Below, piece by piece: positions 30,466 through 31,995 of a stretch of 64,000 bases of DNA. The stretch covers positions 212,623-276,622 of the forward strand of contig CAVWIG010000017.1 of NCBI GenBank assembly GCA_963754945.1, read 5' to 3'. How positions within the stretch are numbered: the first letter of the stretch is position 1; every line of letters begins with the position of its first letter. Position numbers and translations under genes: made by a program. Under the pieces are notes generated by a model. The model saw only the letters and a program-made list of their open reading frames with translations, was not told where the DNA came from and ran no database searches. This DNA comes from Methanotrichaceae archaeon (GTDB taxonomy: Archaea; Halobacteriota; Methanosarcinia; Methanotrichales; Methanotrichaceae).

Positions 30466-30536
30466 GCCGGGGTGACTGACCGGTTAAGTGCGCGGCTGCA
30501 GACCGCGAGAATTGGGTTCGACTCCCAACCCCGGCC
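30466..30536 (+). tRNA. tRNA-Cys(GCA) or tRNA-Cys-like leader, atypical C73, no encoded CCA
   Basis: Acceptor GCCGGGG/CCCCGGC; D-stem ACT/AGT; anticodon arm CGCGG-CTGCAGA-CCGCG; T-arm TTGGG-TTCGACT-CCCAA. Confidence 0.85.
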
Positions 30537-30537
30537 T

Positions 30538-31995
30538 ATGATTATCTACAACACCATGAGCGGCAAGAAAGAGCCGTTTCAGCCAATTCACAAGAATCGC
30601 GTCAACATATTCGTCTGCGGACCAACTGTTTACGACAACTCTCACATCGGACACGCCAGGACCTACATAGCATTCGATGTCGTCGCTCGCTACCTCAAGT
30701 ACAAGGGCTTTTCCGTGTTTTATCTTCAGAACATCACCGATGTTGACGATAAGATCATACAGAGGGCTTCGGAGCTAGGCATTGAGCCGGACGCTTTGGC
30801 GCGCAAGTTTGAGCGAAGGTACTTGGAGGATATGCAGGCGTTGGGCGTGACAAATGTCAACCTCTACGCCAGGGCGACAGAGCACATTCCCGAGATCATC
30901 AGCCAGATTGAGCGGCTCGTGGAGTTGGGTTTTGCTTACGAGACGGAGACTGGTGTTTACTTCGACGAATCTAGATTCGAGGACTTCGGGAAGCTGTCGC
31001 ATCAGACTTTTGAGGAGGTTGCGCGCCACAGGATAGAGCCCGATCCGACCAAGAGGAACCCGGGAGATTTCTCTTTATGGAAGAAACGGGAAGACGGGGC
31101 TAAGGTAACCTGGGATTCGTCTTGGGGAAGAGGACGACCAGGATGGCACATCGAGGACACGGCCATCACGGAGACCTATTTCGGACCTCAGTACGATATC
31201 CATGGCGGAGCAATGGACCTAATATTCCCCCACCACGAGGCAGAGATCGCTCAGATGGAGGCGACGTCAGGAAAAAAGCCACTGGTTAGGGCTTGGATGC
31301 ACACCGGCTTTCTCAACGTCAAGGGCGAGAAGATGTCTAAGTCCCTGGGAAATTTCATGACCATAAGGGAAATGCTGGAGAGATGCGATGCCGAAGCTTT
31401 CAGATTGTTCGTCCTCCTTGCTCACTACCGATCACCAATTGATTTTTCCGAAGAGGTGCTGGAGCAGTCTCGAAAGAGCCTTGAAAGAATTCGCCATCTG
31501 ATCAAGGTCATCGAAGAACAATTAGAAACGCCCGGCGAGATCTCGGAAAGCGAAGGTGTCGACCCAATACTGATCAAGGCAAGAGCTGAGTTCTTGGATG
31601 CGATGGACGATGATTTCAATACGCCTTACGCGCTTCGAACCGTATTCGACCTGGTGAGGGATATAAACCGCAGAATAAACGAAAAAAACGTATCGAAGGA
31701 GACTTTAAAGGATACGAAACTGCTGCTGGAGGAGTTCGGCAGGGTCTTCGGAATCAGCTTTTCTTCCGGGTCAGAAAAATCCATAGGAAAAGAAGAAGAC
31801 ATGGCTCGCGACCTGATCGAGCTGCTTATCGAAATAAGGCAGAAGCTCCGCGAAAAAAAGGACTGGCAGCTCGCCGATGAGATACGTAACAGGATGAAGG
31901 AATTGAACGTCGTGTTGGAGGATGCCGAAGGAGGTGGCAAATATACACTTCGAGGAGAGAATTGCCTTAATCGCAAAACTTATAACCTTCAATAA
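30538..31995 (+). CDS. cysS: Cysteinyl-tRNA synthetase
   Basis: MIIYNTMSG start; CGPTVY, HIGH, GRPGWHIED, FPHHEAE and KMSKS motifs. Confidence 0.97.
   Translation: MIIYNTMSGKKEPFQPIHKNRVNIFVCGPTVYDNSHIGHARTYIAFDVVARYLKYKGFSVFYLQNITDVDDKIIQRASELGIEPDALARKFERRYLEDMQALGVTNVNLYARATEHIPEIISQIERLVELGFAYETETGVYFDESRFEDFGKLSHQTFEEVARHRIEPDPTKRNPGDFSLWKKREDGAKVTWDSSWGRGRPGWHIEDTAITETYFGPQYDIHGGAMDLIFPHHEAEIAQMEATSGKKPLVRAWMHTGFLNVKGEKMSKSLGNFMTIREMLERCDAEAFRLFVLLAHYRSPIDFSEEVLEQSRKSLERIRHLIKVIEEQLETPGEISESEGVDPILIKARAEFLDAMDDDFNTPYALRTVFDLVRDINRRINEKNVSKETLKDTKLLLEEFGRVFGISFSSGSEKSIGKEEDMARDLIELLIEIRQKLREKKDWQLADEIRNRMKELNVVLEDAEGGGKYTLRGENCLNRKTYNLQ

Follow-up and report, generated by a model that had tools for sequence, protein, structure and literature searches.

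Why does a cysteine tRNA gene with an unexpected discriminator base end one nucleotide (nt) before the start codon of a cysteinyl-tRNA synthetase gene? The arrangement lies in a 64,000-nt stretch (the window) of contig C17 from a Methanotrichaceae archaeon, where a tRNA-Cys with the anticodon GCA directly precedes cysS, the gene of a class I cysteinyl-tRNA synthetase (CysRS). A first-pass annotation had offered two readings: that processing of the tRNA 3' end releases a leaderless cysS mRNA, or that the element is a non-chargeable decoy, bound by CysRS to regulate its own gene. Sequence comparisons make it most likely that the element serves a co-evolved CysRS as a genuine substrate and not as such a decoy; and on balance we favour a dedicated pair of C73 tRNA-Cys and CysRS, with the cysS mRNA processed and leaderless.

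A complete tRNA abuts the cysS start codon

The annotated layout of a GCA cloverleaf, a single T and the cysS ATG is exact by ARAGORN, by Rfam and by the sequence itself (Table 1). The Rfam tRNA model (RF00005) spans all 71 bases of the element (53.4 bits, E 3.5e-10), and the cloverleaf, the tertiary positions and the GCA anticodon all mark it as a tRNA of isotype Cys. Read directly, the discriminator is C, as annotated. U73 is the major cysteine identity element of tRNA-Cys as reported in PMC9976931; the window tRNA lacks it, and C73 is kept across the tRNA family to which it belongs. The annotation's premise that SepRS and ordinary CysRS need U73 agrees with what PMC8762117 and PMC5688128 report, and extends to SepCysS: all three enzymes read U73, and its reading by SepCysS is shown in PMC5688128. 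The replacement of so important a base is one argument for the decoy, since C73 would spoil the element for use as a tRNA.

On the other side of the junction, the CysRS matches Pfam tRNA-synt_1e (1.2e-115) and DALR_2, and we place its start at the ATG of Table 1 because residue 3 of the product already has its aligned counterpart in 8qhp, a solved CysRS, at residue 17. A longer open reading frame from a GTG at 30472 was rejected, as it would translate the tRNA and its frame is broken by the 1- versus 2-nt spacers of relatives. The claim that there is no room for a ribosome-binding site is borne out by the 1-nt spacer: 1-2 nt leave no space for a Shine-Dalgarno sequence, and nothing like one is seen in the 3' acceptor strand. 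No terminator separates the tRNA 3' end from the start codon; the two abut as in a leaderless mRNA punctuated by a tRNA. Among the 43 tRNAs that ARAGORN predicts in the genome, no other has an open reading frame of at least 80 amino acids starting no more than 15 nt downstream.

The fused module recurs across the family

A junction pattern (T arm, 3' acceptor strand, C, 1-5 nt and ATG) was run on 105 genomes of the family and matched at 43 places in 38 of them; the reversed pattern, used as control, gave 0 matches. CysRS is itself patchy, occurring in 38 of the 105 genomes and 8 of the 16 genera, and 37 genomes have both CysRS and the fused junction. The exceptions are G011, which has CysRS with a decayed tRNA, and G023, which has a junction whose cysS runs off the contig end. 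Among the genomes with the junction is G097 of genus g2, a single contig of 3.0 Mb. The same fusion is found on 13 further metagenome contigs. A sequencing error at C73, which the annotation had entertained, is ruled out by this recurrence of the same C and the same junction.

The spacer is TC at 20 junctions, TT at 17 and T at 2, with CT, TG, GT and TCATT once each. The annotation had suggested looking for conservation of the 1-nt spacing in relatives; the spacing there is 1-2 nt at 42 of 43 junctions, and 1 nt at 2 of them. The TCATT spacer belongs to a solo C73 tRNA on contig C140 of G002, which is 100% identical to the tRNA of the window and is followed by an ATG and about 11 cysS-like codons.

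Extra or broken copies of the module occur in several genomes, including G005, G019, G041 and G104/G126. In G005 there are three cysS matches, and in the copy at locus L067 a deletion runs from the T loop as far as codon 61; in G126 one copy is split between 159 kb and 338 kb. These duplications and broken copies suggest frequent duplication, transfer or decay. No mobile element was seen adjoining the module in the window.

The element is conserved as a tRNA

Thirty-one distinct 71-nt tRNAs of this family align without gaps, 14 of them of the fused Methanotrichaceae type and 17 of an unfused type from Methanobacteriaceae. U8, A14, G18 G19, U33, the GCA anticodon, GTTC, A58 and C61 are invariant in all 31, and C73 is present in 29, the remaining two being T73 variants from Methanobacteriaceae. 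Across the 20 cloverleaf pairs, 99.8% of the 620 cells are paired, and both-sided changes are seen in 9 of the pairs; 0 of 500 shuffles reached the observed values, and slid controls paired in 28-47% of cells.

One position differs by type: tRNA position 37 (alignment column 36) is G in 14/14 tRNAs of the Methanotrichaceae type and A in several of the Methanobacteriaceae type. Because m1G37 is reported as a SepRS determinant in PMC8762117, A37 would set those Methanobacteriaceae-type tRNAs further apart from SepRS.

A CysRS residue tracks base 73

We extracted 165 full-length CysRS and built a FastTree phylogeny from 91 of them, comprising all those with a linked tRNA-Cys, L011 (the CysRS of G011 with the decayed tRNA), seven from Methanosarcinaceae and every fourth remaining sequence, with identical sequences merged. 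One clade of 51 CysRS, starred on the tree, holds all 47 C73-linked sequences together with L140, whose contig is cut inside the tRNA, two T73-linked sequences from Methanobacteriaceae, and L011. The CysRS of the window groups in this clade with the C73-type enzymes of Methanobacteriaceae, and the branches within it separate fused Methanotrichaceae (gap 1-2 nt) from unfused Methanobacteriaceae (gap 32-212 nt).

A scan for clade-specific residues, combined with a residue table, picked out residue 144. This residue is Glu in 48/48 CysRS with a C73 tRNA and in 15/15 partial loci; it is Ile in both T73 revertants (L074 and L084) and Val in L011, where the tRNA body is gone. Outside the clade the position is occupied by Ile, Leu, Val or Thr in 40/40 CysRS and never by Glu. 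The tree provides three independent contrasts at residue 144, and 3/3 run in the same direction. At residue 150, too, the amino acid goes with the discriminator: U73 is accompanied by Tyr, C73 by Phe, A73 by Ile and G73 by Asn. In E. coli CysRS the aligned counterparts of residues 144 and 150 are Val146 and Tyr152, which lie in the insertion that separates HIGH from KMSKS.

Glu144 thus probably adapts CysRS to C73, a reading that rests on co-variation between enzyme and tRNA sequences, and is a candidate for a single-residue switch of CysRS discriminator specificity. Locus L099, with Glu144 and no upstream tRNA, was considered as a counter-example and rejected: it is a broken second copy, in a genome that also has an intact fused module and a canonical tRNA.

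Natural experiments in Methanobacteriaceae and in genus g10

Methanobacteriaceae have the same 71-nt C73 tRNA upstream of cysS, 32-212 nt away and followed by T-rich trailers. We searched five of their genomes with a tRNA-Cys covariance model. Those with a C73-linked tRNA also have a canonical 72-nt U73 tRNA-Cys in 3/3 cases, and the C73 tRNA coexists with SepRS and the U73 tRNA likewise in 3/3. In the other two genomes the linked tRNA is of the T73 form: G124 has a canonical tRNA-Cys as well, and in G123 the search found no tRNA-Cys beside the linked one. Because the only tRNA-Cys found in G123 is this T73 form, the body of the C73 tRNA family can decode.

The genus g10 offers the converse case of a tRNA in decay. 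Two of its species, G011 and G023, share a tRNA derivative ahead of cysS that retains CCGGGG and, after about 46 unrelated bases, the T arm, CCCCGGCC, the TC spacer and the ATG. The acceptor strands and C73 are kept, the D and anticodon arms are lost, and ARAGORN calls no tRNA. The minimum-energy fold of this remnant keeps the acceptor and T arms, but its z-score of 0.02 gives no sign of selected structure. That such a derivative persists in two species before an intact-looking cysS speaks for the decoy, and a pure signal role is possible for it within g10; yet the g10 enzyme with the decayed tRNA, that of G011, has Val144 and not Glu144. The 3' part of the tRNA beside the ATG can evidently outlast tRNA function, which fits a role in cysS expression, whether as processing site or as promoter.

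A probable second route of cysteine loading

The window genome holds three tRNA-Cys(GCA) genes. Besides the C73 gene there are two with U73, 72 nt long and identical to each other; they lie on contigs C20 and C39 in unrelated contexts, with the tRNA shared and the flanks not. The annotation had thought a second, U73 tRNA-Cys elsewhere in the genome worth looking for, and this check was partly decisive: such a gene is present in two identical copies. The C73 gene is therefore not the only tRNA-Cys of the genome; a sole tRNA-Cys that is normally charged was what the annotation had named as telling against its proposal. The two canonical tRNAs could cover decoding, which counts in favour of the decoy. 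SepRS scores above the NCBIfam cut-off in 41/41 relatives, window genome counted in, and a canonical U73 tRNA-Cys was found in 35/41, including every relative that bears CysRS. The C73 pair thus stands alongside SepRS and canonical U73 tRNA-Cys in the window genome itself.

We suggest that the window tRNA is a working second cysteine tRNA, paired with the CysRS encoded one base downstream. The two would form an accessory, direct route, in which free cysteine is loaded by CysRS onto tRNA-Cys(C73). This route would run beside the tRNA-dependent one that is family-wide, in which SepRS and SepCysS act on canonical U73 tRNA-Cys, and C73 probably excludes the window tRNA from the latter. The distribution of cysE, which encodes serine acetyltransferase, fits a package of free-cysteine synthesis and direct loading beside the tRNA-dependent route, though as an association only, among kin that are not independent. 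The gene is present in 37/105 family genomes, namely 33/38 with CysRS and 4/67 without (one of the four being G023). Several genomes (G104, G097, G049 and G042) have it at 2-7 kb from the module, and in the window genome it is on the same contig, 132 kb from the module (Table 1).

About a third of the species genomes of the family (38/105) would then carry an optional second route for loading cysteine onto tRNA, with a dedicated, C73-marked tRNA and an enzyme whose Glu144 appears, from the residue comparison, to read base 73. The co-occurrence with cysE ties the module to the metabolism of free cysteine, and this helps account for the patchy presence of CysRS among methanogens that use SepRS. 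The relatives of Methanothrix are major acetate-using methanogens. As a natural pair that is possibly orthogonal to SepRS and SepCysS, the module is also relevant to genetic-code engineering.

In three genomes a second SepCysS-like paralog of greater length (about 400 bits; frames of 470-490 amino acids) was noted at a distance of 3.5-5 kb from the tRNA-cysS module (Table 1).

Expression of the module

A conserved box, TTGCCGCTACC, lies upstream of the tRNA and is followed by CAAATATTAG, which begins 42 nt and ends 33 nt ahead of the tRNA 5' end. The TTGCCGCTACC..CAAATATTAG motif is met again ahead of most fused loci, although their flanks are unrelated, and similar A-rich/TATA-like boxes precede other tRNA genes of the genome at about equal distance. 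The oligo-T run that follows most other tRNAs of the genome is absent after the window tRNA-Cys. An RNase Z gene is present (360 bits).

The anatomy of the locus, its conservation, its co-occurrence with CysRS and the correlation of residue 144 with the discriminator are established by the comparisons; co-transcription, an RNase Z cut, leaderless translation and the charging specificity set out above are what we infer. On the simplest model, a single tRNA-type promoter about 35-40 nt upstream of the tRNA would drive both genes. RNase P would trim the 5' leader and RNase Z would cut after C73, so that one RNase Z cut would provide both the tRNA 3' end for CCA addition and a cysS mRNA with a 5' end of 1-2 nt, to be translated as a leaderless message. 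The module may thus be an archaeal case in which tRNA processing makes the translatable 5' end of an mRNA.

The genome contains 26 occurrences of the upstream box in degenerate form, TTGCC[GT]C[AT]A[CT]C, where about 11 would be expected. A regulon search with it gave no shared continuation beyond three copies of a similar repeat: these three repeats, TTTTGCCTCAATCT.A.T..TTAA.TA, at C13:12639(+), C17:202304(-) and C34:7126(+), resemble the box before some tRNA-cysS modules. In RNA data, a peat metatranscriptome (5% of words matched) yielded nine contigs, all from relatives.

Several observations weigh against a dedicated pair with a processed leaderless mRNA. The independent contrasts at residue 144 number only three, which is below significance (sign test p 0.25). 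SepCysS (TIGR02539), the partner of SepRS, was not found in the 87.7%-complete assembly of the window genome (2.97 Mb in 54 contigs), although it is present in 40/40 relatives, both congeners included; its absence is probably an assembly gap. The one metatranscriptome contig that bridges a C73 tRNA and the next 167 nt matches the locus type of G002 contig C140, in which cysS is truncated to about 11 codons, and may be DNA carry-over; it is thus no firm guide to co-transcription of tRNA and cysS in either direction. Finally, a crude scan of 1762 open reading frames from their first ATG, with start calls too rough to be decisive, found Shine-Dalgarno-like 5-mers at -18 to -4 in 357, with a peak at -14 to -10, and no TATA-like A/T peak near -27; leaderless mRNAs are, on this rough basis, not obviously common in the organism.

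The alternative that survives best, though we judge it unlikely, keeps the tRNA functional and has cysS transcribed from a weak promoter inside the tRNA gene, starting at or near the ATG and yielding a primary leaderless transcript. Such a promoter would likewise predict the tight 1-2 nt spacing. The region of the variable loop is A/T-rich in all fused variants (AGAAT, ATAAT, ATATT, TTATT, ACAAT). At about 24-31 nt ahead of the ATG, with the promoter itself put at about 28 nt, it sits roughly as far from a start at the ATG as an archaeal TATA box would, and the g10 remnant retains exactly this 3' part with the tRNA body lost. However, the variable loops of unfused Methanobacteriaceae are equally A/T-rich (ATACT, ATATT), so that the richness is a family trait rather than an adaptation to fusion; the box in the loop is flanked by G+C-rich stems and matches the tRNA promoter boxes of the genome poorly; and a conserved promoter-like box sits upstream of the tRNA instead.

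A further alternative, for which we see a still smaller chance, adds autoregulation: CysRS would bind the tRNA part of the precursor and slow either its processing by RNase Z and RNase P or its translation, thereby limiting its own mRNA. The thrS operator of E. coli is a partial mimic of tRNA-Thr that overlaps the Shine-Dalgarno site and is never a tRNA. It shares with our locus a cognate tRNA-shaped RNA directly before the start of a synthetase gene, but the window element is a complete tRNA with its tertiary positions kept, has no Shine-Dalgarno sequence, and precedes an enzyme that co-evolves with the discriminator; by its full tRNA features, by G123 and by the co-evolution at base 73 it is not a mimic of the thrS type. 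Were the two genes co-transcribed, a cognate, co-evolved substrate would lie within the primary transcript of CysRS itself, and the fusion is kept in 37/38 CysRS genomes even though the Methanobacteriaceae pair works with linkage at a distance. Co-expression at a fixed ratio accounts for the fusion without feedback, however, and productive binding by CysRS needs a free CCA end, which the precursor lacks. The most elaborate form of the idea is a self-contained, self-regulating unit for a naturally orthogonal pair, in which one RNase Z cut yields the C73 tRNA and the leaderless mRNA of its only charging enzyme, and CysRS bound to the precursor feeds back on that cut. This is speculative and in our judgement improbable; if true, tRNA punctuation would here, for the first time in an archaeon, give rise to a translatable mRNA, and a genuine tRNA would serve a thrS-like autoregulation.

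The non-chargeable decoy or operator, in which the element only binds CysRS or signals processing, is very improbable, being disfavoured by Glu144, which tracks C73 and reverts in all three C73 losses, by the same tRNA family standing well apart from cysS, with its T-rich trailers, in Methanobacteriaceae, by G123, and by a cloverleaf upheld with compensatory changes in which the anticodon, the anticodon loop and all universal, tertiary-interaction positions are invariant.

Relation to known systems

In mitochondrial tRNA punctuation, and with the t-elements of plant mitochondria, a coding region borders directly on a tRNA, or on a structure like one, so that cuts by RNase P and RNase Z define the end of an mRNA that is leaderless. 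Our locus shares with these a tRNA abutting a coding region and, if processed as we propose, a leaderless mRNA; it differs in that it is archaeal, concerns a single gene pair, and would release an mRNA encoding the very enzyme that charges the released tRNA. The literature search found no paper on tRNA-released leaderless mRNA in archaea.

Dedicated pairs of this kind have precedents. Pairs of non-U73 tRNA-Cys and CysRS in methanogens are already published: methanogens that use SepRS and have a non-U73 tRNA-Cys with an altered CysRS are described by Perona et al. 2018, as cited in Mukai et al. 2022 (PMC8762117). The shared features, as that passage gives them, are C73 in place of U73, a CysRS altered in its acceptor-binding region, coexistence with SepRS and possible orthogonality; and the clade grouping of the window CysRS, with the discriminator-linked changes in the enzyme, would place our pair in the same class. 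The passage names Methanobacterium for C73, and not Methanothrix or Methanotrichaceae, and it is without cysS linkage, fusion to the start codon at 1-2 nt, residue 144 or cysE co-occurrence. PMC8762117 was the sole match in our search for C73 tRNA-Cys in methanogens, and no match joined Methanothrix with tRNACys and CysRS. Matches that joined Methanosaeta with tRNACys did not, judged by title and abstract, deal with the discriminator, and PMC3848588 and PMC4681348 proved irrelevant. Nor did the search find a report of the Methanotrichaceae case, the 1-2 nt start-codon fusion, the Glu144 signature or the cysE link, although the chapter by Perona et al. 2018 and the supplements of papers, which lay outside it, may list some of these. 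A parallel for two systems in one cell is the archaeon reported in PMC9499178, in which two coexisting PylRS/tRNA-Pyl pairs are told apart by G73 versus A73: there, too, two synthetase/tRNA systems serve one amino acid and are split largely by the discriminator, but the amino acid and the enzyme class are others and there is no fusion to a start codon.

Coordinates and neighbouring features

Table 1. Features of the tRNA-cysS locus and related loci. Plain numbers are window positions; other entries give genome or locus, contig and position.
Feature	Position	Strand	Basis or remark
Promoter-like element (putative)	30411-30433	+	Conserved box TTGCCGCTACC 30411-30421, then B recognition element (BRE)/TATA-like CAAATATTAG 30424-30433
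tRNA-Cys(GCA), 71 nt, 4-nt variable loop, no encoded CCA	30466-30536	+	ARAGORN, Rfam, covariation
Acceptor strands of tRNA-Cys	GCCGGGG 30466-30472; CCCCGGC 30529-30535	+	Sequence
Anticodon GCA	30498-30500	+	
Discriminator C73 (U73 expected in tRNA-Cys)	30536	+	Sequence
One-base spacer T	30537	+	Predicted RNase Z cut between 30536 and 30537
cysS, class I CysRS, 485 amino acids	30538-31995	+	ATG 30538-30540
Codon of Glu144	30967-30969	+	Motif YFD-E-S, HIGH-KMSKS insertion of CysRS
Solo C73 tRNA with TCATT spacer	G002:C140 (L223:503-610)		
g10 tRNA derivative, G011	L011:1395-1500		
g10 tRNA derivative, G023	L221:90-180	-	
SepCysS-like paralog	G002:C78:27134-28270		
SepCysS-like paralog	G018:C65:10960-12093		
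SepCysS-like paralog	G005:C64:5074-6210		
cysE	G104:C1:143370-143825		
cysE	G097:C1:2685532-2686017		
cysE, window genome	C17:110800-111285		

Upstream of the module, window positions 25108-30221 encode a 1009-amino-acid CheB-CheR-PAS fusion protein and a 643-amino-acid hybrid histidine kinase with a receiver domain. At 4278-4368 (C17:216900-216990), ARAGORN reads a 91-nt tRNA-Pro(cgg) or, with the intron option, a tRNA-SeC(tca) with a 16-nt intron; this ambiguous call is probably an intron-bearing tRNA.

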